64,000 bases of DNA, from the IMG/VR virus record IMGVR_UViG_3300045988_068596; one strand, written 5' to 3'. The translations under genes and the position numbers were made by a program. The DNA comes from a virus. Below the pieces are notes generated by a model. It saw only the letters and a list, made by a program, of their open reading frames with translations. It was not told the DNA's origin and did no database searches. Below, piece by piece: positions 1,453 to 54,378 of this stretch (its first letter is position 1; each line of letters begins with the position of its first letter).

Positions 1453-1692
1453 ATGACGGTTAAAGTTTATAATACCTATCACAAGGAAACCGAGTTTTTA
1501 GATGGTACTATAGAAGAGGCAAGAAAAGAAAAAGAAAACATGCTTTCTATTAAGGCGTGGGAACTAGCAGAAAATGAGGTAGAGGAAGATTGGGAACTTT
1601 ACTATAAAAGCTATAAAGAAGCTTTACAGGCTACTTATAACGATATATTTTTAACGTTGTGTAGTGAAATAGAATACTCAATTGTAGAATAA
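1453..1692 (+). CDS. hypothetical early protein (79 aa)
   Basis: ORF with AGGAGG RBS. Confidence 0.55.
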   Translation: MTVKVYNTYHKETEFLDGTIEEARKEKENMLSIKAWELAENEVEEDWELYYKSYKEALQATYNDIFLTLCSEIEYSIVE

Positions 1693-1710
1693 AAAATTTA
1701 GACTTTTCTA

Positions 1711-1739
1711 TTGACAAAAGACAATAAACACTATATAAT
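1711..1739 (+). promoter_or_regulatory. early promoter
   Basis: TTGACAAAAGACAATAAACACTATATAAT. Confidence 0.6.
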
Positions 1740-1773
1740 AAACATGTAAGATAAAAGAAAGAGGGAACTAAAA

Positions 1774-2157
1774 ATGACAACTTTAAAAGAAGCATATAAC
1801 GAAATTATTGAAAGCAACTTAAACGAACCAGAAGAACGCAAAACATACTTACAGGACTTAACACAACACGGGGCAATTAGCGGAATGGTTAGCGGTTTGA
1901 TTTACTACCACGAAACAACTCAATTTTTTAATGAACACCGTGACGAAATTCTTGCAATGTTACACGAATTAAAAGAAGAAACGGGGCTAGACGAAAAAGG
2001 GCTATTCGGTGACAAGTGGAACGATTGGGAAGACTTACTAGAAGACGAAGCGGACGACTTAGACCCGTTAGCAGACACAAACAATCAAAATTTATTGGCA
2101 TGGTTTGCGGTGGAAGAGCTAGCAAAGAAAGAACTAGACGAATTAGAAGAAGCATAA
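1774..2157 (+). CDS. hypothetical early protein (127 aa, acidic C-terminus)
   Basis: ORF with AGAGGGAA RBS. Confidence 0.55.
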   Translation: MTTLKEAYNEIIESNLNEPEERKTYLQDLTQHGAISGMVSGLIYYHETTQFFNEHRDEILAMLHELKEETGLDEKGLFGDKWNDWEDLLEDEADDLDPLADTNNQNLLAWFAVEELAKKELDELEEA

Positions 2158-2160
2158 CAA

Positions 2161-2180
2161 ACAAGGCGGGAACGTTCCCG
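2161..2180 (+). terminator. palindromic hairpin GGCGGGAACGTTCCCGCC (terminator-like), part of a repeated terminator-promoter cassette
   Basis: perfect 9-bp palindrome followed by an A/T-rich run and then a promoter; the cassette 2168-2228 repeats window positions 1-60. Confidence 0.4.
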
Positions 2181-2219
2181 CCTTACATAAAAAAAGTTAA
2201 AAATTTTTATGTTTATCTA

Positions 2220-2248
2220 TTGACAAAAAGAAATAAACCTGATAATAT
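2220..2248 (+). promoter_or_regulatory. early promoter
   Basis: TTGACAAAAAGAAATAAACCTGATAATAT. Confidence 0.55.
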
Positions 2249-2273
2249 AAAGACATAGAAAGGGAGCATAAGA

Positions 2274-2552
2274 ATGTTAGATAAAGAATACTTGCATCAG
2301 CAACTAGAAAGAAGCTTTTATCCAATAAACGATATAAAACGGTTGTCAGTATTACACAAACAAGAACTTAACAACTTAAAAAACCACGTAAGAAAAGGAG
2401 CTACACCGGAACACGTAGCCAAACAATTGGAAGAACTAACAAAAGAAATGAACGAGCTTTCTAACCTTGCGTGTTCATTAGAGTTATATGTTAGAAGTGT
2501 AAAGAACCAACTAGGGAACGAACTAGGCAAAAACGTAAACAAACACGAATAA
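2274..2552 (+). CDS. hypothetical early protein (92 aa)
   Basis: ORF with AGGGAG RBS. Confidence 0.55.
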   Translation: MLDKEYLHQQLERSFYPINDIKRLSVLHKQELNNLKNHVRKGATPEHVAKQLEELTKEMNELSNLACSLELYVRSVKNQLGNELGKNVNKHE

Positions 2553-3057: not shown

Positions 3058-3098
3058 GAAAGAGGGGGAAACCTCTCTTTCTAAAATAAAAATTTTAA
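3058..3098 (+). terminator. intrinsic terminator-like hairpin plus T-run
   Basis: AAAGAGGGGGAAACCTCTCTTT followed by CTAAAATAAAAATTTT. Confidence 0.45.
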
Positions 3099-3107
3099 AC
3101 TTTTCTA

Positions 3108-3136
3108 TTGACAATAAACAATAAAGATAATATAAT
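3108..3136 (+). promoter_or_regulatory. early promoter
   Basis: TTGACAATAAACAATAAAGATAATATAAT. Confidence 0.6.
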
Positions 3137-3147
3137 ACTAGTGAGGA

Positions 3148-3474
3148 ATGATAAAAATGCAAATCGAAATTATCGAACCTAAAAAAGAATTTAAATTTTT
3201 AACTAGGGAGGAACTTAACACCTATCAATTAGAAGCGGGGGAACTTGTGGAACTAACTTATATAGTAAACTACACAAAAGAAACGCCTAAAGAATTGACA
3301 AGTGTTTTCATGTTTGCGGATACCATCGGGGCAAGCTCGTATCTTGTAGACGTAGAAACGGGCATAATGACAAAGACACAAACAAAAAACCCGCTTTCTA
3401 ACTGTAATCTAGCTATAACAAAAGTAGACTTTTTCAAAACAAGCAAACTTATACTAGAAAGGAAAGAAAACTAA
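3148..3474 (+). CDS. hypothetical early protein (108 aa)
   Basis: ORF with GAGGAA RBS. Confidence 0.5.
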   Translation: MIKMQIEIIEPKKEFKFLTREELNTYQLEAGELVELTYIVNYTKETPKELTSVFMFADTIGASSYLVDVETGIMTKTQTKNPLSNCNLAITKVDFFKTSKLILERKEN

Positions 3475-3665
3475 TGAATTTAAAAGAGTGGGGCTATACA
3501 TGGGACGGCATGAAAGAAATTACACGGGAACAAGCAAAGAAACAATACAAGGAAAAAGAAACATTTATTCTATATAGTGATGACACAGAAAGCCTTATCG
3601 AGTCAGAGGAACAATTTAATATAAAGGGCGTTCGTTACGGTGTGGAAAAGGAGGGGGAACAATGA
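3474..3665 (+). CDS. hypothetical early protein (63 aa)
   Basis: ORF translationally coupled to the upstream gene. Confidence 0.45.
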   Translation: MNLKEWGYTWDGMKEITREQAKKQYKEKETFILYSDDTESLIESEEQFNIKGVRYGVEKEGEQ

Positions 3666-3859
3666 ACAAATTTCTAGAAGAAAGAAAATCAGACTTACTT
3701 ATTCAACAAAAAGAACAAGCTCAAACCTTATTGCACTATATAGAGGAAAACAAAGAACCAGACCAAACCATCATACAAAGACAAACAAACAGGCTTAACA
3801 GGTTAAGCGCTCAAATATACGAAATTAAAATGATACAAAGAAAACTAAAAAGAATATAA
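3662..3859 (+). CDS. hypothetical early protein (65 aa)
   Basis: ORF with GGAGGGGGAA RBS, overlapping stop/start. Confidence 0.45.
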   Translation: MNKFLEERKSDLLIQQKEQAQTLLHYIEENKEPDQTIIQRQTNRLNRLSAQIYEIKMIQRKLKRI

Positions 3860-3872
3860 GGAGAAAACAGAC

Positions 3873-4052
3873 ATGGAAACAGTAAAAGACATTAAAAGAA
3901 TGATAGGAATACTAAAAGAGGATATAAAGCATAAAGAAAGCTATATAAAGGAATTAGACGAACAAGGAAGAATGATAGAGTCAGAACTATTGAAAGCAGA
4001 AGTAAAAGGGATGAGGGACGTTATTCAGGACATAGAACAAGCTATATATTAG
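3873..4052 (+). CDS. hypothetical small protein (59 aa, coiled-coil)
   Basis: ATG at 3873 after AAGGAGAAAA RBS; below the ORF-track cutoff. Confidence 0.4.
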   Translation: METVKDIKRMIGILKEDIKHKESYIKELDEQGRMIESELLKAEVKGMRDVIQDIEQAIY

Positions 4053-4066
4053 AAGGAGGGGAAAAC

Positions 4067-4270
4067 ATGAAAGAAGTTAAGCTTATTCAATTAGACAAGA
4101 AAGAAATAGACAGTTATCACACATGGGGCATATTTGACACAACGGAACCAATAGAAGACGGGGACAGAATTTCTATATATGACCATAAAACGGGGGGCGT
4201 TCTACTTATAGACGTTATAACAGTAATCAAGGAAACAGAAGGCTATTTCTTTCTTATTATAGAGGAATAG
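4067..4270 (+). CDS. hypothetical early protein (67 aa)
   Basis: ORF with AGGAGGGG RBS. Confidence 0.5.
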   Translation: MKEVKLIQLDKKEIDSYHTWGIFDTTEPIEDGDRISIYDHKTGGVLLIDVITVIKETEGYFFLIIEE

Positions 4271-46530: not shown

Positions 46531-46617
46531 TGGAAGGCATGGGATTCGAACCCACACATGCTGTTACACATCTACTTGGTTTCCAACCAAGCCTCTTTAC
46601 CGTTTGAGTAACCTTCC
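46531..46617 (-). tRNA. tRNA-Ser (GGA), class II
   Basis: acceptor GGAAGGT, anticodon stem-loop CTTGG-TTGGAAA-CCAAG, long variable arm. Confidence 0.7.
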
Positions 46618-46712
46618 GTCTTGGGAGCAGGCGGGTTTGTGTCAAGTACACAATACCTAATCTTTTGTGCATGTTGTTCCCTAGGCTTCATGCACACCCT
46701 ACTATCTGCATA

Positions 46713-46898
46713 CTAACAGACCTGCCAATTTTCTAACACTTTTTCTAATGCTTCGTATGGACACATTACTGTCTTACCGTGAACATCATGTATTCTCAAA
46801 ATAATATAATGCTCATTTATCTCGGAGGTAACAAAGTATATCTTGTCCTTCACTAAACCTAAACTTCCGTTTAAACCAATGAATTTTAAATACATCAT
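46713..46898 (-). CDS. hypothetical small protein
   Basis: ORF with AGGAGG RBS. Confidence 0.4.
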   Translation of the reverse strand: MMYLKFIGLNGSLGLVKDKIYFVTSEINEHYIILRIHDVHGKTVMCPYEALEKVLENWQVC

Positions 46899-47211
46899 GT
46901 TACCTCCTAACTATGTATAACCCATGAAGCATCATGGGGGGACTGTAGTATGCCCAACCTGCGGGGATGCTCCGCTCTGAATCCGTAGAAATCAGCCACA
47001 ATTATGTCACTGGTAAGGATTTGCACCTTACATGCACACTTCCATTAGTTAGTCGGCACCTTCGAGATAGGGACATACAGCTTCAATTTTCTAATGGATT
47101 TATAGGAATCTAGCCTTACAGTTGTTTACCCGACTTGTTCTAGACTAGCCTGAATCTTCCCCTGTGCTATACTGTGTTAATTAGCGTTTACCTATTCCGC
47201 CACAGTGACTA

Positions 47212-47559
47212 TGGAGTAGACGGGACTCGAACCCGTGTCCTAACGTAGAACCATACAAAATTCTACGGGCGTAGTTACTAGTTTTAATCTACGTTAAGGT
47301 TACAACTAATAACTGAAATTACCTTAACTGAGTGGTAAAGCCTCTCCTGAGTTATCCACTTTTACCTCAGCGTTGTCGGTTAATGAGTCCTCTAGGTAGA
47401 ACCGACCCTAGTCTAGAGGGGTAAGTGTGTAGCTAGTCTAAAACTAGGCTACAGCTAATAATTCTTCGTTTTTAGCAGTTATATTTACTGCGATGATTAA
47501 GTCATCACTCTGCCCGCTATTCATATATTTCTTACGCCAGTCGAAACCAAAACTACCCC
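47212..47559 (-). ncRNA. ssrA: tmRNA (SsrA), tag peptide AKNEELLAVA
   Basis: 5' end GGGGTAGTTTTGGTTTCGACTGGCG (compare tmRNA 5' GGGGCUGAUUCUGGAUUCGACGGG). Internal frame GCT AAA AAC GAA GAA TTA TTA GCT GTA GCC TAG (47447-47476). 3' tRNA-like end ACGGG-TTCGAGT-CCCGT-CTACTCC-A pairs with the 5' GGGGTAG. Length about 348 nt. Confidence 0.75.
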
Positions 47560-47792
47560 AACATAAGAATTTCTTTTGACTAACCCTACCCTTCCGGCAG
47601 GGTCTAATCAAAAGTATACAATTAAAAAAATGAAAATGAGTTACGGAAAATGTAACATCTCCACCACCGGACTATAAGGGTAAGTTGTTCCGGTCTTTAA
47701 CCTAAGTACTTTACTTAAATCTAACAGGACAGTCTTCATTACGTAAACTACTTAACCATGTAAAACGTAAAGGTCAATTTCCGTTGACCTAA

Positions 47793-47877
47793 TACAAGAG
47801 GAGGGATTCGAACCCTCACGCCCATCATAGGCATGGCATTCTAAGTGCCACATGTCTACCAATTCCAACACTCTCGC
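47793..47877 (-). tRNA. tRNA-Leu (TAG), class II
   Basis: anticodon stem-loop TGGCA-CTTAGAA-TGCCA, long variable arm, T-arm GAGGG-TTCGAAT-CCCTC. Confidence 0.7.
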
Positions 47878-47962
47878 ATAATAACAGCCCTACCCACCTA
47901 CTGTTCTGCTAGCATATAGCTTGCAGGCTTTTTATCTGTGTTATAAAAACCAGAAAGGTTAT

Positions 47963-48045
47963 ACAGGTAACAGGAGTCGAACCTGCATGTCACAAAGGAC
48001 AATGGATTTTAAGTCCACAGCGTATACCAATTCCGCCATACCCGC
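47963..48045 (-). tRNA. tRNA-Leu (TAA), class II
   Basis: anticodon stem-loop GTGGA-CTTAAAA-TCCAT, T-loop TTCGACT. Confidence 0.65.
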
Positions 48046-48222
48046 ATAATCACTTTTTAAACTAGATTATTTATGATTCCTCACTTCTGGAAAAATACCA
48101 CTTTATATATCAACATTTTTCTTATGAATGGGTTAAGATATGTTTTAACGAAAAAGAGGCTAAAAGAGTATTTCCTCAAAATTTTCGGTCAAGTTAATCT
48201 AGTAAGGAAAAGTGTAACCTTA

Positions 48223-48294
48223 TGTGACTGCTCAGAATCGAACTGAGATTCATGTTTCCACAGAACACTGCCTTACCATTAGGCTACAGTCACC
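48223..48294 (-). tRNA. tRNA-His (GTG) with encoded G-1
   Basis: extra 5' G before acceptor GTGACTG/CAGTCAC; anticodon loop CTGTGGA. Confidence 0.75.
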
Positions 48295-48365
48295 ATCATG
48301 TGTTCCTTACAAGAATTACTATACAGCATCTTGTAAGGAAAGTCAACACTTACATATAAATTTAT

Positions 48366-48587
48366 TTAAAAAAGTTTTGATGAATCTAATTGAGAGAAAC
48401 TTTCGGGTAGAGAACCTAGCTCTTCCATGTACTCTTGGTCAATCTCGTAAACAGTTAACTCCGTTACTTCATTTTCAATGGTAAGTTTCATTGCTTCTGC
48501 TGTTTGTATACTGTGTCCTTCTACTTGAAGCTTATCATCAAGATAAATGCCTTCCCAGTCTCCTGCAACTACATAATCTGCTTTCAA
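48366..48587 (-). CDS. hypothetical acidic protein
   Basis: ORF. Confidence 0.4.
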   Translation of the reverse strand: MKADYVVAGDWEGIYLDDKLQVEGHSIQTAEAMKLTIENEVTELTVYEIDQEYMEELGSLPESFSQLDSSKLF

Positions 48588-48595
48588 GATATTAC

Positions 48596-48847
48596 CTACT
48601 TTCTCCTCAATTTCTGATAAAAATTATTATCCTTGTAATCTTCCTCGTGGGCATAAAATTTTTTCATATCATATGTCCAACAAGTTTCTTCTAATCGTTT
48701 ATGATGTGTCAATGTTACTTCATCATCAAAACGACCTTGATTTAATTTATGCCTGTAATTTCTGTTAACCATTCTTTTTATGTCTCGAACAGTTGAATCC
48801 TTCATACAAACATAACGGTAATAGGGTTTTCTGTAACTTCTACTCAT
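48596..48847 (-). CDS. hypothetical basic protein
   Basis: ORF with AGGAGGA RBS. Confidence 0.45.
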   Translation of the reverse strand: MSRSYRKPYYRYVCMKDSTVRDIKRMVNRNYRHKLNQGRFDDEVTLTHHKRLEETCWTYDMKKFYAHEEDYKDNNFYQKLRRK

Positions 48848-48900
48848 TGTAAGTCCTCCTTAATAGGTACTTACAATTTATTTAACCTTTTTTTCATTTT

Positions 48901-49185
48901 TTATAGCCCTCTTTCGAACAGACGTCTTAAAGTCTTACCCTCATTATTTAAAACATATACCGAGTTAACATAAGCCTTTGTCTCTCCTTTGTTGTCAACT
49001 CTATATTCATAGGGTTCATTTGGAACACGGGTAATCTCTTCATGTTTAGAATTAAGTAAAGAAAAAGCATTTTCTTGTTCTAAAAGAAATTGTACCCCAT
49101 CAATAAGTTCGATAAAAGGTTTAGTGGTTGGTTCAGTGCTGTCTTTTGGAACGTATTTTCGTTCTCCCAAAATTTGTAATATCAT
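48901..49185 (-). CDS. hypothetical protein
   Basis: ORF with AGGAG RBS. Confidence 0.45.
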   Translation of the reverse strand: MILQILGERKYVPKDSTEPTTKPFIELIDGVQFLLEQENAFSLLNSKHEEITRVPNEPYEYRVDNKGETKAYVNSVYVLNNEGKTLRRLFERGL

Positions 49186-49293
49186 ATCTATCTATCTCCT
49201 ATATGTGAATATATTTACCTCCCGAAAAACGTTTCTTCACCAAAGTGTAAGACGTAAACTAACGACAGGTCATAGTTTTCCAATTAAGGCAAA

Positions 49294-49367
49294 TACCAGT
49301 GAGAGGATTTGAACCTCTGACACCCGCCTTATCAAGACGATGCTCTAACCAACTGAGCTACACTGGT
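49294..49367 (-). tRNA. tRNA-Ile (GAT)
   Basis: acceptor ACCAGTG, D-arm GCTCAGTTGGTTAGAGC, anticodon loop TTGATAA. Confidence 0.8.
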
Positions 49368-49520
49368 GTGACCCATGTGTCAGGACTTTCACCTGTTCTC
49401 GGGGTGCCCCGCCTCTCTACTAATCTCCTCATTCGGTGCCCCTAATAGAGTGACTAGAGATAGTTAGCAGTAAAAATTATATATCATGAATCAAATTTTT
49501 ACTGCATCCTATATACACGA

Positions 49521-49592
49521 TACCGTCTACAGGATTTGAACCTGTGACATCCACCTTGTAAGGGTGGCGTTCTCCCACTGAACTAAGACGGT
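49521..49592 (-). tRNA. tRNA-Val (TAC)
   Basis: anticodon stem-loop CCACC-CTTACAA-GGTGG, T-loop TTCAAAT. Confidence 0.8.
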
Positions 49593-49600
49593 GAAAAATA

Positions 49601-49669
49601 CGGAAGACAGGATTTGAACCTGCGATATAGGAGTTTTAGTGCACTCATTGTCTCCCACGGTATCCGTTG
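49601..49669 (-). tRNA. tRNA-like element, anticodon unassigned (possible pseudogene)
   Basis: canonical T-arm GCAGG-TTCAAAT-CCTGT and a partial acceptor; no clean D or anticodon arm. Confidence 0.3.
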
Positions 49670-49701
49670 CGTATTGCCATCACGCCACTCCCGTATGCTA
49701 A

Positions 49702-49774
49702 CCGACAGTAAAGGAATCGAACCTCTATCACTAGATTCGTAGTCTAGCATCCTATCCAATTGAACGAACTGTCG
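49702..49774 (-). tRNA. tRNA-Arg (ACG)
   Basis: acceptor CGACAGT/ACTGTCG, anticodon stem-loop CTAGA-CTACGAA-TCTAG, T-loop TTCGATT. Confidence 0.75.
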
Positions 49775-49876
49775 CTCTAGGCTAGCAATTACGCAGACTG
49801 ACTATAGGCACCTTCGTCCCGTCACCTGTAAGTGCCCTCCTACAGGTTGTCCGTGGCACCGCAATGTACTAACCGA

Positions 49877-49950
49877 TGTCCCCACAGGGATTTGAACCCC
49901 GAACCCCCCGATTAAAAGTCGGGTGCTCTAGCCAATTGAGCTATGAAGAC
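49877..49950 (-). tRNA. tRNA-Lys (TTT)
   Basis: D-arm GCTCAATTGGCTAGAGC, anticodon stem-loop CCCGA-CTTTTAA-TCGGG. Confidence 0.75.
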
Positions 49951-50009
49951 AGTTGTGTTTTTCAAGATAACCCTCTCGAAAAACCGTTACTAATAGAAAA
50001 ACTAAGGGT

Positions 50010-50083
50010 CTCGACTGACAGATTTGAACTGCCTGCTCCTCCTAAGAGGCGTGTTACCAAAGCCATACACCAACTCTTCGAGA
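50010..50083 (-). tRNA. tRNA-like pseudogene (anticodon arm replaced by a closed hairpin)
   Basis: T-arm GGCAG-TTCAAAT-CTGTC and a 6-bp acceptor, but the anticodon region is the closed hairpin CCTCTTAGGAGG. Confidence 0.3.
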
Positions 50084-50084
50084 A

Positions 50085-50158
50085 TATCCCCTACAGGATT
50101 CGAACCTGTGACCCCCTGATTAAGAGTCAGGTGCTACCACCAACTGAGCTAAGGAGAT
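50085..50158 (-). tRNA. tRNA-Lys (CTT)
   Basis: anticodon stem-loop CCTGA-CTCTTAA-TCAGG, T-arm ACAGG-TTCGAAT-CCTGT. Confidence 0.65.
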
Positions 50159-50175
50159 AAGATTATCAATAGCTA

Positions 50176-50248
50176 GTTAAGCCTTACGGAATCGAACCGC
50201 CATGAGGTTATGAAGCTCACATAGACCACTAGACACAAAACTAGCTTA
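50176..50248 (-). tRNA. tRNA-like with CAT anticodon (Met/Ile2?), degenerate
   Basis: T-loop TTCGATT, loop TTCATAA; weak stems. Confidence 0.35.
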
Positions 50249-50350
50249 TTGATAAAATTCTATATAGATAATTGTATGCAATGTTCGCACTAACTAACCA
50301 GATAACCAGTCAATCATTCAAAACATTAATTTGTGAGTTTCCGCTCACAA

Positions 50351-50423
50351 TGCTGATTGAGAGAATCGAACTCCCATTCCCGGGTTACAAAGCCGGAGTA
50401 ATAGCCGTTATACTAAATCAGCG
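50351..50423 (-). tRNA. tRNA-Thr (TGT)
   Basis: acceptor GCTGATT/AATCAGC, anticodon loop TTTGTAA, T-arm GGGAG-TTCGATT-CTCTC. Confidence 0.65.
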
Positions 50424-50447
50424 TAACCCCTCAATAGAGGGGAATTA

Positions 50448-51539
50448 TTATACTAAGTTACCATACCCGTAGGTATTTGTTTGAGCTTGTTTAAACATAA
50501 TGCTCTTGATAGTTAAGTCGTTGTACTTTTCATCGTCTTCATCATCAAGGTACACATCAACGTTAACGTTCTTACCGGAAATACCGATTGTTTCGTCTTT
50601 ACCAACTGTTAAGTCTTTACTGTTGAAGGATACATCAAAGTAAATGCTATCTTCTTTTGTACGACTACCGAACGAAACTCTGTCACCGAATAAATCTAAG
50701 CTTCGAGAGTTGATTACAACAGGTTGTAACCCACCTTCAAATTGAATAGTTACTGTGTAATATTGATTTTCAATATTAAGGATGTTTAAGTCAGCAATAG
50801 CTTCACCAAATGGGATACCAAAGCTTAATTCCAATGCAATTGCTCGTAAGCAGTCATAGTTTAACTTAATTCTACGACTAAACTTAACAACACTGTCAAT
50901 TTCACCATAGTAAGCTTCGTCTAACTTATCTTGCAAGTAAGTACGAATTTCATCTGCATCAGGATATTCGAAACGTAAATGATAATGGAAACGTCCCGGA
51001 CGGTTAAGCATAAAGTCATTTACACGACTTAAGCTATTAACAGTAAGAGCGTAGATACGTTTACGTTGTGATAAACCATCGAATAAGCTCAATAGTTTTT
51101 CTTGTGGTTCACGACCGTCACGGTCATTAAATACTTTTTCAAATTCATCGAACAGGATAAGAGACTCTTGGTCAATACTGTCAATAAATTCTGCAATCCC
51201 CGGATAAGCTTCTGTAATTAAGATAACAGGCATATCCTCTTCAATAGCTCGTTGAGATAATATTTGAGTAAATAGTGATTTACCAATCCCTTTGTCTCCA
51301 CTTAAAATGATTCCTAAGCTACGATTAATTGTTTTAAATGTGTGTAGCACTTTTTCAATTTTAGCTAAACGGTCACCGTAAACTTTAGGTTCTTTCAATT
51401 CAAAATCGTCTGTTACTACTAGTGAGAACCCAGACATTGGATTGAATCGAACTTTATAAGTTTGCGCAGGCAACTTATCATAAGTTTTAAGGTCGTTTGC
51501 ATAAATTTCATAGTTACTACCATAGTTGATTACTTTCAT
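50448..51539 (-). CDS. AAA+ ATPase
   Basis: Walker A GDKGIGKS and Walker B ILFDEFE; start MKVINYG (the ORF-track upstream extension would overlap tRNA-Phe). Confidence 0.6.
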   Translation of the reverse strand: MKVINYGSNYEIYANDLKTYDKLPAQTYKVRFNPMSGFSLVVTDDFELKEPKVYGDRLAKIEKVLHTFKTINRSLGIILSGDKGIGKSLFTQILSQRAIEEDMPVILITEAYPGIAEFIDSIDQESLILFDEFEKVFNDRDGREPQEKLLSLFDGLSQRKRIYALTVNSLSRVNDFMLNRPGRFHYHLRFEYPDADEIRTYLQDKLDEAYYGEIDSVVKFSRRIKLNYDCLRAIALELSFGIPFGEAIADLNILNIENQYYTVTIQFEGGLQPVVINSRSLDLFGDRVSFGSRTKEDSIYFDVSFNSKDLTVGKDETIGISGKNVNVDVYLDDEDDEKYNDLTIKSIMFKQAQTNTYGYGNLV

Positions 51540-51578
51540 AAATATTCCCCTTATTCGTGTTTTATTAGCATTTGCTAA

Positions 51579-51652
51579 TGGAGAGGGGTGGAATTGAACC
51601 ACCGACCCCTAGGGTTTCAATCTAGTGCTCTAACCTACTGAGCTACCTCTCC
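51579..51652 (-). tRNA. tRNA-Phe (GAA)
   Basis: acceptor GGAGAGG, D-arm GCTCAGTAGGTTAGAGC, anticodon loop TTGAAAC. Confidence 0.7.
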
Positions 51653-51774
51653 GTGTCAATTTGGACTTATCCCCCACGTGGTTACTAAGATAAGTCCTAT
51701 GCCTTTGAAGTGTGGATACTCAAAAAATGAGTACAGGTACTAAAAATCTGATGACAAGTCAGATTTATGTCATA

Positions 51775-51847
51775 AGCAGAAGGTGAGATTCGAACTCACG
51801 TTCAGGGGTTTGCAATCCCTAGCCTTAACCCACTTGGCTACTCCCGC
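51775..51847 (-). tRNA. tRNA-Cys (GCA)
   Basis: anticodon loop TTGCAAA, T-arm GTGAG-TTCGAAT-CTCAC. Confidence 0.65.
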
Positions 51848-52087
51848 ATTGGCATCCCTCTAGGTTTTTATCTGCATCGGGACTCACATAAACTGATAAG
51901 TGAAAACAGGGCACTAGTCTGCTTTACACCTGCGCTATCAGAACCTAGACTCAGCAACACTGCCTTAGATGACTTTAATCTTGTAAACACGTCACATTCT
52001 TCAACAATTACCAGTAGAGTGCTACATACCAGTAATTCGTTCCTGTGAAGGATAGTACACTATAACTATCACCGCTGTCCAAGAATA

Positions 52088-52159
52088 CACGCCGTGAAGG
52101 ATTCGAACCCCCGTCTTCCGGGTTGGAGCCGGAAATGATAGCCACTACACCAACAGCGC
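52088..52159 (-). tRNA. tRNA-Trp (CCA)
   Basis: anticodon stem-loop TCCGG-CTCCAAC-CCGGA. Confidence 0.7.
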
Positions 52160-52246
52160 AAGATTCGGAGGGGAGGGACTAGCAACCCTCCGAAAAATGT
52201 AAGATAATGAGAGATTAAAACATGCCACTATTAAAAGTGGAATAGG

Positions 52247-52292
52247 TAATTAAGGATTCGAACCTTACAAGCCCTTACTGCTTACCTTGTAA
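52247..52292 (-). ncRNA. tRNA-like minihelix (acceptor plus T-arm only)
   Basis: AGGTAAG, 13 nt, TAAGG-TTCGAAT-CCTTA, ATTACCT; no D or anticodon arms. Confidence 0.3.
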
Positions 52293-52329
52293 ACTTATAG
52301 TATCATGTGTTGTACCGAAAGTCAACACT

Positions 52330-52362
52330 TTTTATAAAAATAATAGGGAGAAATATTTCTCC
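52330..52362 (-). terminator. intrinsic terminator (GGGAGAAATATTTCTCCC plus T-run)
   Basis: perfect hairpin followed by TATTATTTTTAT on the minus strand, then an AAGTGTTGAC promoter. Confidence 0.5.
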
Positions 52363-52369
52363 CTAAAAA

Positions 52370-52443
52370 TGGACTATACCGGAATTGAACCGATGACCTG
52401 TCAGTTATGAGCTGACGGCTCTGACCTACTGAGCTAATAGTCC
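52370..52443 (-). tRNA. tRNA-Met (CAT)
   Basis: D-arm GCTCAGTAGGTCAGAGC, anticodon stem-loop GTCAG-CTCATAA-CTGAC, T-loop TTCAATT. Confidence 0.8.
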
Positions 52444-52650
52444 GTGTAATAATACCACGAAATAAACCTTAGTAAGTCATATAGTCCCAGAAAGGGAGAC
52501 ATATGAAACTAGTGTTGAATGCCATAATCGTTTAATAAATGTGACTGAGAGAGTAATAAATTTCTTAGGCATGTCCATATGCCCCCTTTCCAATAATGAT
52601 AGTTTTAAGATATAAACAGAATAAATAAAAGAGAAAATAATAATGAATAA

Positions 52651-52723
52651 TAGCGCATGAGAGAGTCGAACTCTCGATTCCGGTTCGAAAGACCGGTGTC
52701 TTGACCGCTTGACCAATGCGCCA
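52651..52723 (-). tRNA. tRNA-Arg (TCG)
   Basis: anticodon stem-loop CCGGT-CTTTCGA-ACCGG. Confidence 0.7.
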
Positions 52724-52727
52724 TAAA

Positions 52728-52803
52728 CGAGCTATATGGGACTTGAACCCATGACCTTCTCCGTGACAGGGAGACGAGCACTCCTGACTGCTCCAATAGC
52801 CCA
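52728..52803 (-). tRNA. tRNA-Asp (GTC)
   Basis: anticodon stem-loop TCTCC-CTGTCAC-GGAGA, T-arm ATGGG-TTCAAGT-CCCAT. Confidence 0.7.
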
Positions 52804-52927
52804 ATGTTTCCCCAACCACCGCCACCTAGGGGATTCGTACGTCTACGTGAGTTTTCTGGTTATACATTATTGTTCAAGACAATAGTTGTACGAGTGGAAT
52901 ACCAATTTACCACTCTGCGGTTCCTAT

Positions 52928-52999
52928 TGCGGTAGGTGGGAGTCGAACCCACTAAAGCTTGGTTATGAGCCAAGTGCCTAAACCGTTCGGCATCTCCGC
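52928..52999 (-). tRNA. tRNA with CAT anticodon (Met/fMet/Ile2), imperfect acceptor stem
   Basis: anticodon stem-loop CTTGG-CTCATAA-CCAAG, T-arm GTGGG-TTCGACT-CCCAC. Confidence 0.55.
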
Positions 53000-53702
53000 A
53001 GTAATACAAGTCTGGTTAAAAACTCAAAACTTAATAGATTAAGGGCTTTTCTTCCTGCTTCATATACACTCACTGCATTCGGTCACATACTCAGAGAGGC
53101 TGAACCATCGGGAGCTACCCAATAGCTTCTCTCTGCCTTTAATGTATGGTCTAGCACGGTGGCTAACAACGTTCACCTAAACATTCAGCATTAAAAGTAT
53201 TATTTTACATATAACCCATATGTCTTCTGTAATATTTTCATCCAACGCTGACTTAAGCTACTTGTACCAAGGTCTCTTGTTAAACCTGTATTTCTACAGT
53301 TCTCGTCAAAGGGAGTCTTTTGAGTTTTCCAAGGTCTGCCAAGCTTCTCACACTTCCACCTAACTTGGATTCTTTTCCACAGGAACGTCTATTGTATCCC
53401 CCAAGAGTCTTGTACCTTACAATCCATGTATACTCCACATAACGCTTAACTGATATTAGCTTTTACTAATAGTTACTCCTATGTTACCATAAGACCTACC
53501 TGCAACCCAAAGCACTATCGCACCTTCGGTTACATCCAGATTCACGCCACGTTATCCTAGCAAGCTGTTCAAACTTTCTGCACTAGGTTCAAAATCTATT
53601 AAGTTTTCAATTTTTAACCACTAACTTGTGGTGTAATATTAATATAGCATAACATTACAAAGTTGTAAACACCTTTTTGTAAGTTTTTTTGATTTTTTTT
53701 GA

Positions 53703-53791
53703 TGGAAGGTAAGGGGGTCGAACCCTTACACCGGATTTCTCCGACCTAACTGATTAGCAATCAGCCCTCTTAACCATTTGAGTAACCTTCC
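53703..53791 (-). tRNA. tRNA-Ser (GCT), class II
   Basis: acceptor GGAAGGT, anticodon loop TTGCTAA, long variable arm. Confidence 0.7.
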
Positions 53792-53830
53792 AAAAGCAAA
53801 AAGGGAACCCCTGTAATTAAACAGGGGTAA
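53792..53830 (-). terminator. intrinsic terminator (CCCCTGT..ACAGGGG plus T-run)
   Basis: hairpin followed by TTCCCTTTTTGCTTTT on the minus strand. Confidence 0.55.
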
Positions 53831-53900
53831 GAGAGATGTCTCTAAAAGCCTACAACCATTATAACATAGAAACATAGTTTGTACAGCCGTAACTGTACAA

Positions 53901-53972
53901 CTGTCAGGACAGGGTTCGAACCTGTATCGCAACCTTCAAAGGGTCGTGTCCTACCTGTTAGACGACCTGACA
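53901..53972 (-). tRNA. tRNA-Gln (TTG)
   Basis: acceptor TGTCAGG/CCTGACA, anticodon stem-loop CGACC-CTTTGAA-GGTTG. Confidence 0.7.
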
Positions 53973-53974
53973 AA

Positions 53975-54022
53975 AAGGTGGAACCTCCCTAAATTTGGGG
54001 AAGAGGGAGGTTCTCATGCTAT
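53975..54022 (-). terminator. intrinsic terminator-like hairpin (GAACCTCCCT/AGGGAGGTTC)
   Basis: 10-bp stem followed by CACCTTTTTG on the minus strand. Confidence 0.4.
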
Positions 54023-54064
54023 TAACAAACACGAATTTGCTAACCAAGTAATCTTGACTAGCAA

Positions 54065-54135
54065 CTCACCTAGCAGGACTTGAACCTACAAGAACTGGTT
54101 AACAGCCAGTCATGATACCGTTTCATCATAGGTGA
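54065..54135 (-). tRNA. tRNA-Asn (GTT)
   Basis: D-arm ATGAAACGGTATCAT, anticodon stem-loop ACTGG-CTGTTAA-CCAGT. Confidence 0.7.
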
Positions 54136-54378
54136 ATTTTAGTTCTATCAACATTATAACACAAAAGCTGATAGAACTAGCAACTTTTTTACAAACTTAA
54201 CAACTTTTTTCTTAACTACTGATTCAGCAACTTACTCAATAGTTAAAGACTTAAAGAAAGAGGAAGTAATTGAGGTATGTCAATCACTAACTAAAGTATA
54301 CAACATTTTTATCATCCTGACAACAACTAAATGCAAAAAAGTTCAAAAAAGATTATAAATAGTTAAATTATCAGAATA

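Follow-up and report, generated by a model that had tools for sequence, protein, structure and literature searches.

A complete one-piece tmRNA gene in the tRNA island of a Schiekvirus Enterococcus phage

The virus record IMGVR_UViG_3300045988_068596 was analysed as one stretch of 64,000 nucleotides (nt), here called the window. It derives from an Enterococcus myophage of the genus Schiekvirus (Herelleviridae; Brockvirinae), the genus in which the fetched matching records are classed. On the minus strand, at 47212-47559, the window holds a genuine, complete, one-piece transfer-messenger RNA (tmRNA) gene, ssrA. With a probability of about 0.8 we regard its product as a functional tmRNA of a virulent phage that is expressed from a minus-strand tRNA island and supplements the trans-translation of the host during infection.

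The existence of tmRNA in these phages is already on record and is not a discovery of this study. The gene is annotated as ssrA or tmRNA in six sister GenBank records (Bop, Bill, CCS1, iF6, 113 and vB_Edu_21C1), and Schiekvirus tmRNAs are mentioned or listed in PMC10054541 and in Table S1 of PMC9004378, which names EFDG1 and EfV12-phi1. The latter survey, published in 2022, found tmRNAs in 402 of 18,146 phage genomes (2.3%). A reading of the window made earlier from its letters alone (the sequence-only reading) had called phage tmRNAs rare and pointed to some jumbo myophages; uncommon they are, but not limited to jumbo phages. Our literature search found no structural or functional description of a Schiekvirus tmRNA. 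Annotation of the gene is missing from most other Schiekvirus records, that of the type phage EFDG1 among them, and in PEF1 (OQ653963.1, 130814-131414) four 'hypothetical protein' coding sequences lie under the 601-nt match to the tmRNA locus, probably a misannotation. The present description thus has an annotation value for a gene that is unmarked in most records of the genus and overlaid by spurious coding sequences in one.

Identity, structure and conservation

ARAGORN placed a tmRNA on the minus strand at 47212-47559, with the tag AKNEELLAVA* and a coding part at gene nt 84-116. The Rfam tmRNA model RF00023 matched 47209-47559 on the same strand over model positions 1-374 of 374 with 145.1 bits and E = 6.2e-57, the gathering score being 47. 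Both runs had been proposed as checks by the sequence-only reading, and its coordinates, strand and tag were identical to those of ARAGORN. The 5' end that it had quoted, GGGGTAGTTTTGGTTTCGACTGGCG, is present in the sequence, as are the T-arm and the acceptor 3' strand CTACTCC, which pairs with the 5' strand GGGGTAG from G1-C347 to G7-C341, including G3·U345. Two of its details had to be adjusted. The short tag frame exists as claimed and starts at nt 84, not at about nt 90; the statement that no six-frame open reading frame (ORF) covers the region holds for longer ORFs, but a mechanical 55-aa ORF with a TTG start (47444-47611, minus strand) overlaps the 5' part of the tmRNA. The features are given below, with nt 1 of the tmRNA at window position 47559. 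The helices were derived by hand and checked on an alignment of phage copies (A2).

47212..47559, minus strand: complete one-piece tmRNA (ssrA) gene, 348 nt to the discriminator A (ARAGORN, Rfam RF00023, sequence, structure and covariation)
47553..47559, minus strand: acceptor stem 5' strand GGGGUAG (nt 1-7), which holds G3 of G3·U and pairs with nt 341-347
47212..47236, minus strand: T-arm (nt 324-340), acceptor 3' strand CUACUCC and discriminator A (nt 341-348) (Rfam alignment)
nt 1-7 / 341-347: acceptor stem, with G3·U345
nt 324-328 / 336-340: T-arm, 5-bp stem ACGGG/CCCGU, loop UUCGAGU
A348: discriminator
nt 20-29 / 311-320: helix P2a, preceded by G18·A322 and A19·G321
nt 33-40 / 301-308: helix P2b
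nt 44-48 / 290-294: helix P2c
47490..47508, minus strand: 7-bp hairpin at the position of pseudoknot 1 (PK1), nt 52-58 / 64-70, loop CUUAA (stem enumeration; centroid fold)
47444..47476, minus strand: tag frame AKNEELLAVA, resume codon GCU (nt 84-86) to stop codon UAG (nt 114-116) (ARAGORN)
47428..47453, minus strand: helix P5 with the stop codon inside, nt 107-111/128-132 and 113-116/124-127, 100% of cells paired
47274..47419, minus strand: pseudoknot block PK2-PK4
nt 141-147/165-171 with 154-160/179-185: PK2
nt 190-194/209-213 with 200-204/225-229: PK3
nt 233-239/260-266 with 247-254/279-286: PK4

Relatives of the gene were confined to phages of the same host genus. A blastn search of 50,697 phage records with a 601-nt query around the gene returned 32 matching records, all from Enterococcus phages; 29 of them contain the whole gene, and EA1, GVEsP-1, ZJGS3 and ZJGS4 are 100% identical across the query. 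Pattern scans of viral and metagenome contigs added further Schiekvirus-type copies and one divergent lineage, L005; the metagenome scan yielded only four loci, one of them a duplicate of L005. In this lineage (L005 = L022, a 48-kb contig) the tmRNA is 86% identical to that of the window and the tag is the same, the tRNA order differs, and no more than 19% of the 11-kb locus is matched by Schiekvirus genomes, with an identity of about 77%. Covariation was assessed on 14 distinct phage copies (alignment A2), that is, on two lineages and the variation within the genus.

On this alignment, standard pairs occupied 98.3% of the 1260 pair cells of the hand-derived structure. Changes on both sides were seen in nine pairs, compared with none in any of the six slid controls, and the covariation score of 0.080 stood against 0.039 for shuffled alignments (0 of 500 shuffles reached 0.080). 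The compensatory changes are located in the acceptor stem, the T-stem, PK2-S2, PK4-S1 and PK4-S2. The acceptor pairs 5:343 and 6:342 occur in three compensatory variants, UA/AU, CG/UA and AU/UA, and two T-stem pairs are changed on both sides among the phage copies. None of the 14 copies departs from the G3·U pair recognised by alanyl-tRNA synthetase (AlaRS). The base of the tRNA-like domain in the window copy consists of G18·A322, A19·G321 and C20-G320, which join the conserved 5' GAC to the 3' GGA of GGAC. Foldable pseudoknots had been named as a check, and PK2, PK3 and PK4 emerged as clean H-type pseudoknots with 99-100% of cells paired and compensatory changes behind them. The nested minimum-free-energy fold recovered P1, P2, P5, PK2-S1 and the T-arm, with z = -3.0.

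The best conserved part of the RNA is the one that would be translated. Between the two lineages there is no difference in nt 34-127, a segment that spans the 5' strands of P2b and P2c, the hairpin, the resume context and the tag frame, and there are 46 differences elsewhere. The frame reads GCU AAA AAC GAA GAA UUA UUA GCU GUA GCC and ends with UAG within P5. Positions -5 and -4 of the resume codon are U79-A80, which lie in a 13-nt single-stranded region; they match U85/A86 of E. coli, the main determinant of frame choice (PMC2481249). Conservation of the frame in relatives, the other check that had been suggested, extends to every relative found, the lineage with 86% identity included. The peptide is identical in all of them and the only substitution in the frame of any copy, U102C in EfV12-phi1, turns UUA into CUA and is synonymous (Leu). 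Taken together, conservation and covariation read as the signature of a working RNA with a translated template region.

AKNEELLAVA has the polar head and hydrophobic tail usual for tmRNA tags, and including the alanine of the charged tmRNA the appended sequence would be AAKNEELLAVA. An AVA ending is found in 12 of the tabulated bacterial tmRNA tags and a LAVA ending in two tags of Campylobacterota. By this comparison the ending, which differs from the ALAA of the host, lies inside the natural range of proteolysis tags, and the peptide may serve as a ClpXP degron in Enterococcus.

The position of PK1 is the unusual part of the molecule. A true PK1 pseudoknot, in which helices 3 and 4 would follow P2 and precede the resume codon, could not be constructed by enumeration, a simple stacking-energy search that falls short of a full pseudoknot predictor; the only crossing candidate for the second helix had 3 A-U pairs and a loop of 2 nt to bridge 7 bp. 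The 7-bp hairpin in its place appears in the centroid structure and is invariant in all 14 copies. Alignment with enterococcal tmRNAs shows a gap of 7 nt in the phage RNA, precisely where the second PK1 strand of the hosts lies. The resume codon follows 13 nt past the hairpin, compared with 12 nt past PK1 in E. coli. Helix 4 of PK1 is also missing in the tmRNA of Oenococcus oeni and in one plastid tmRNA (PMC1168896), and a small stable hairpin is cited as a substitute for PK1 in E. coli with retention of tagging (Tanner et al. 2006, cited in PMC3968760). By analogy with these cases a PK1 reduced to a hairpin, unusual yet with precedent, would be compatible with function and not disqualifying.

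Genomic setting and loss of the gene

The tmRNA gene lies in a co-oriented island on the minus strand (45016-54136) with 24 tRNAs called by ARAGORN and 2 tRNA matches found by Rfam only. The ARAGORN tRNAs cover 19 of the 20 amino acids, in agreement with the near-complete array of the sequence-only reading; no tRNA-Tyr was found in the island. One of the Rfam-only matches, 72 nt at 52928-52999 (minus strand), forms a cloverleaf with a CAU anticodon and would be a second Met-, initiator- or Ile2-type tRNA. The other, 96 nt at 49599-49694 (minus strand) with 33 bits, has acceptor, D and T arms and no regular anticodon arm. Between the tRNA-Ser(gct) and a tRNA with a CAU anticodon the island contains a full-length ROOL RNA (RF03087; 53025-53611, minus strand; 260 bits versus a gathering score of 99, E = 3e-58). 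The ORFs of the island encode an AAA ATPase, the largest one (50448-51602, minus strand), and domains of unknown function; no CCA-adding enzyme, other tRNA-processing enzyme or SmpB was among the ORFs inside the island.

The bases after the discriminator A of the tmRNA are UAG. CCA is not encoded by the tmRNA gene, nor by any of the 24 tRNA genes of the island, so the 3' end would need trimming and the addition of CCA after transcription, as judged from the tRNA maturation pathways of Firmicutes. A tblastn search with the E. coli SmpB sequence matched 68 phage records, only two of them from Enterococcus; the one among the matches listed is not a tmRNA-bearing phage. At the sensitivity of tblastn and among the matches listed, a phage smpB was thus not detected in the tmRNA-bearing Enterococcus phages, and the RNA would therefore use the SmpB of the host together with its AlaRS, EF-Tu and 3' processing.

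Upstream of the gene a single block is the sole flanking sequence that is conserved with the divergent lineage; it lies 95-150 nt upstream of the tmRNA.

47650..47708, minus strand: upstream block of about 59 nt, promoter-like TTAAAG, 18 nt, TATAGT (MAFFT alignment of upstream flanks)

The block is followed by a small GUUAC/GUAAC hairpin that is kept in both lineages. The search of the flanks for a consensus sigma-70 promoter or an intrinsic terminator gave nothing convincing, and the promoter scan missed the upstream block. A terminator-like hairpin follows the upstream tRNA-Leu.

One phage of the genus has lost the gene. In the viable isolate EFP01 (KY549443; locus L149, 2501-4222) only the last 14 nt of the tmRNA remain, joined to the 5' portion of a sequence that resembles tRNA-Asp (Rfam 'tRNA' 2528-2600, acceptor strands unpaired). 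The two neighbouring tRNA-Leu genes are absent as well, and a transposase coding sequence is located at 3080-4222.

Variable tRNA-like domain and a neighbouring endonuclease gene

The substitutions among Schiekvirus copies are concentrated in the tRNA-like domain, with 14 in 67 nt compared with 15 in 281 nt elsewhere (Fisher p = 2e-4). The haplotypes of acceptor stem, T-stem and junction are mosaic: acceptor type and junction type occur in each of their four possible combinations, which indicates recombination or repeated change. At nt 316-323 (window 47237-47244), 6 of the 14 copies carry GUCAACAC in place of GUUAGGAC; the window copy is not among them. The copies with GUCAACAC retain compensated acceptor and T stems.

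In some relatives a gene for a Seg-like homing endonuclease of 240 aa, with GIY-YIG and NUMOD1 domains, lies 5 nt past the tmRNA 3' end on the opposite strand. It is absent from the window and was located in three other copies:

phage 113 (L001), 1609-2331, plus strand: endonuclease gene (annotation)
EfV12-phi1 (L003), 1607-2329: endonuclease gene
metagenome locus L020: endonuclease gene inferred only from a 1.25-kb gap between tmRNA and tRNA-Ser

All three carry GUCAACAC, and the endonuclease gene is found in none of the seven copies with GUUAGGAC. This association suggests a homing-associated co-conversion of the tmRNA 3' end as the simplest explanation of the variant junction; an escape from a host factor as the cause of the variation is more speculative. 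In several phages the BLAST homology to the window ends at or right after the tmRNA 3' end. The two-piece BLAST matches of phage 113 and EfV12-phi1 had also been considered as a sign of an intron or endonuclease inside the tmRNA gene, a possibility that was rejected on the annotation, which puts the GIY-YIG gene outside.

Two interpretations assign the variable domain a larger role. According to the first, the tRNA-like domain is under diversifying pressure, exerted either by a host factor that tells phage from host tmRNA or by the Seg-like endonuclease at the 3' end, while hardly anything changes in the other 280 nt; the molecule would then be a PK1-less rescue RNA dependent on host SmpB that matters mainly under defences damaging mRNA or tRNA. 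We consider this unlikely; if true, a tmRNA encoded by a virus would for the first time have a defined biological role. According to the second, which we hold to be quite improbable, the RNA takes part in an arms race and replaces the host tmRNA when a defence, such as mRNA- or tRNA-cleaving toxins or abortive-infection nucleases, inactivates or overwhelms trans-translation; the rapid change of the tRNA-like domain would then stem from evasion of a nuclease or inhibitor directed at this domain. The enrichment of substitutions with pairing kept by compensation, the presence of all four acceptor and junction combinations and the position of the gene in a large tRNA island speak for such a counter-defence. 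Large phage tRNA islands have been proposed to counter tRNA-targeting defences. On the other side, a tmRNA-targeting nuclease in Enterococcus is not known to us, and no search for one was made here; the sample of 14 copies is small, and the endonuclease gene next to the three copies with the variant junction offers a simpler cause.

Function and comparison with known tmRNAs

As a functional tmRNA that supports the trans-translation of the host, the RNA would be matured by RNase P at the 5' end and by trimming and a CCA-adding enzyme at the 3' end. With the G3·U identity element in place, the AlaRS of the host would add alanine. Host SmpB would bind the charged molecule and EF-Tu would bring it to ribosomes that have stalled on mRNAs with a break or without a stop codon. 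Translation would resume at the GCU at nt 84, set by U79-A80, would add (A)AKNEELLAVA and would end at the UAG in P5. The ribosome would be recycled, and the hydrophobic C-terminus of the tag would probably send the product to a host proteolysis of the ClpXP type. During lytic growth, with host RNA synthesis curtailed and mRNA damage frequent, such an activity may keep ribosomes available. The tmRNA would thus complement the near-complete tRNA set of the phage as an accessory fitness gene.

Several points weigh against this interpretation. Our literature search yielded no data on expression, aminoacylation or tagging, either for the Schiekvirus tmRNA or for that of another phage. The assignment of the upstream block as a promoter is weak. 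The hairpin at the PK1 position is invariant in all copies, so covariation neither supports nor contradicts it. In the six variant copies GUCAACAC breaks the conserved C20-G320 and A19·G321 at the base of the tRNA-like domain, and the Rfam score drops by 14-19 bits. Since EFP01 is viable without it, the tmRNA is an accessory gene, not an essential one, and any benefit is conditional.

The apparent lack of a phage SmpB has a second implication, as the RNA must compete for the SmpB of the host. It might thus mainly act as a decoy that soaks up SmpB or EF-Tu or otherwise inhibits host trans-translation, with tagging not its purpose. Such a role has been suggested for the molecule of mycobacteriophage DS6A, which consists of a tRNA-like domain alone, and molecules of this kind strongly inhibit tmRNA (PMC4131195). 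For the Schiekvirus RNA we regard this role as very unlikely, because the mRNA-like domain is its best conserved part, with an invariant peptide and a synonymous change only, and a decoy would need neither the U-A that sets the frame, nor a stop codon within P5, nor three compensated pseudoknots. A decaying and now inactive relic, derived either from host ssrA acquired by chance or from a fragment of attP type, is strongly disfavoured: EFP01 has lost the gene, the tRNA-like-domain junction is non-consensus in six copies and phages often carry 3' ssrA fragments as integration sites (PMC3029335), but this gene is full length, sits in the tRNA island of a virulent member of the Herelleviridae, keeps every structural element with compensatory changes at about 50% identity to host ssrA, and occurs with an always identical tag in most related GenBank records and in a distant lineage.

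A functional tmRNA that supplements the host system remains our preferred interpretation, and Schiekvirus offers a tractable object for it: the phages can be cultivated and are candidates for use against E. faecalis and E. faecium in therapy, and the host is genetically accessible. Nature supplies further resources with the deletion in EFP01, the PK1-to-hairpin variant and the haplotypes of the tRNA-like domain, the latter for recognition by SmpB and AlaRS. A first functional study of a phage tmRNA could start from the PK1 hairpin, from the frozen template region, from the variability of the tRNA-like domain and from the loss in EFP01.

Compared with the ssrA of E. faecalis and E. faecium (RF00023; tags AKNENNSFALAA, AKNENNSYALAA), the phage gene shares the one-piece organisation, G3·U, P2, P5 and PK2-4, as well as an identical 23-nt stretch, UAAAUAUAACUGCUAAAAACGAA, that comprises the region which sets the frame and the initial four residues of the tag, AKNE. 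In both, CCA is not encoded, as seen in the host-type genes of the loci L004 and L013. Host-type tmRNAs with the tags AKNENNSFALAA, AKNENNSYALAA and others were encountered at prophage ends, and the one with the tag AKNENNSFALAA is 100% identical to E. faecalis-derived records. In contrast, the phage gene is only about 50% identical to these overall and 31-39% across PK2-4; it measures 348 nt versus 364-365 nt, and its 7-nt deletion removes a strand of the second PK1 helix and leaves the hairpin. The phage tag is two residues shorter and ends with LLAVA where the hosts have (F/Y)ALAA, its frame is closed by UAG rather than UAA, and the host genes score 214-219 bits in Rfam versus 127-146 bits for the phage copies.

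A recent capture from the host was rejected, given the identity of about 50% to ssrA of the E. faecalis type and an nhmmer alignment that covers only the ends and the resume region. With a profile of the phage gene, nhmmer gave 373-443 bits for the phage copies; among the matches listed the best bacterial tmRNA reached 48 bits, and enterococcal tmRNAs were matched in two pieces with 26 and 22 bits. A permissive pattern scan of bacterial genomes returned tmRNAs from many phyla, with no close source lineage among the matches listed. By these comparisons the phage tmRNA is an old, independently evolving lineage in the style of Bacilli/Lactobacillales. Oenococcus oeni, likewise a member of the Lactobacillales, resembles it in the single hairpin at the PK1 position, according to the published description (PMC1168896).

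Among phages, a complete ssrA in a large virulent genome, commonly near phage tRNA genes, is shared with the cluster C mycobacteriophages (Bxz1 group), Bacillus phage G and the Melnitz-like marine myophages (PMC4131195, PMC9004378, PMC4472892). A sequence relationship to these tmRNAs was not detectable, the blastn search of the phage records having found the gene in Enterococcus phages only. The architectures differ as well: the tmRNAs of the Melnitz type are two-piece (permuted) and riboswitch-linked, mycobacteriophage DS6A has the tRNA-like domain only, and the Schiekvirus gene encodes a complete molecule in one piece.

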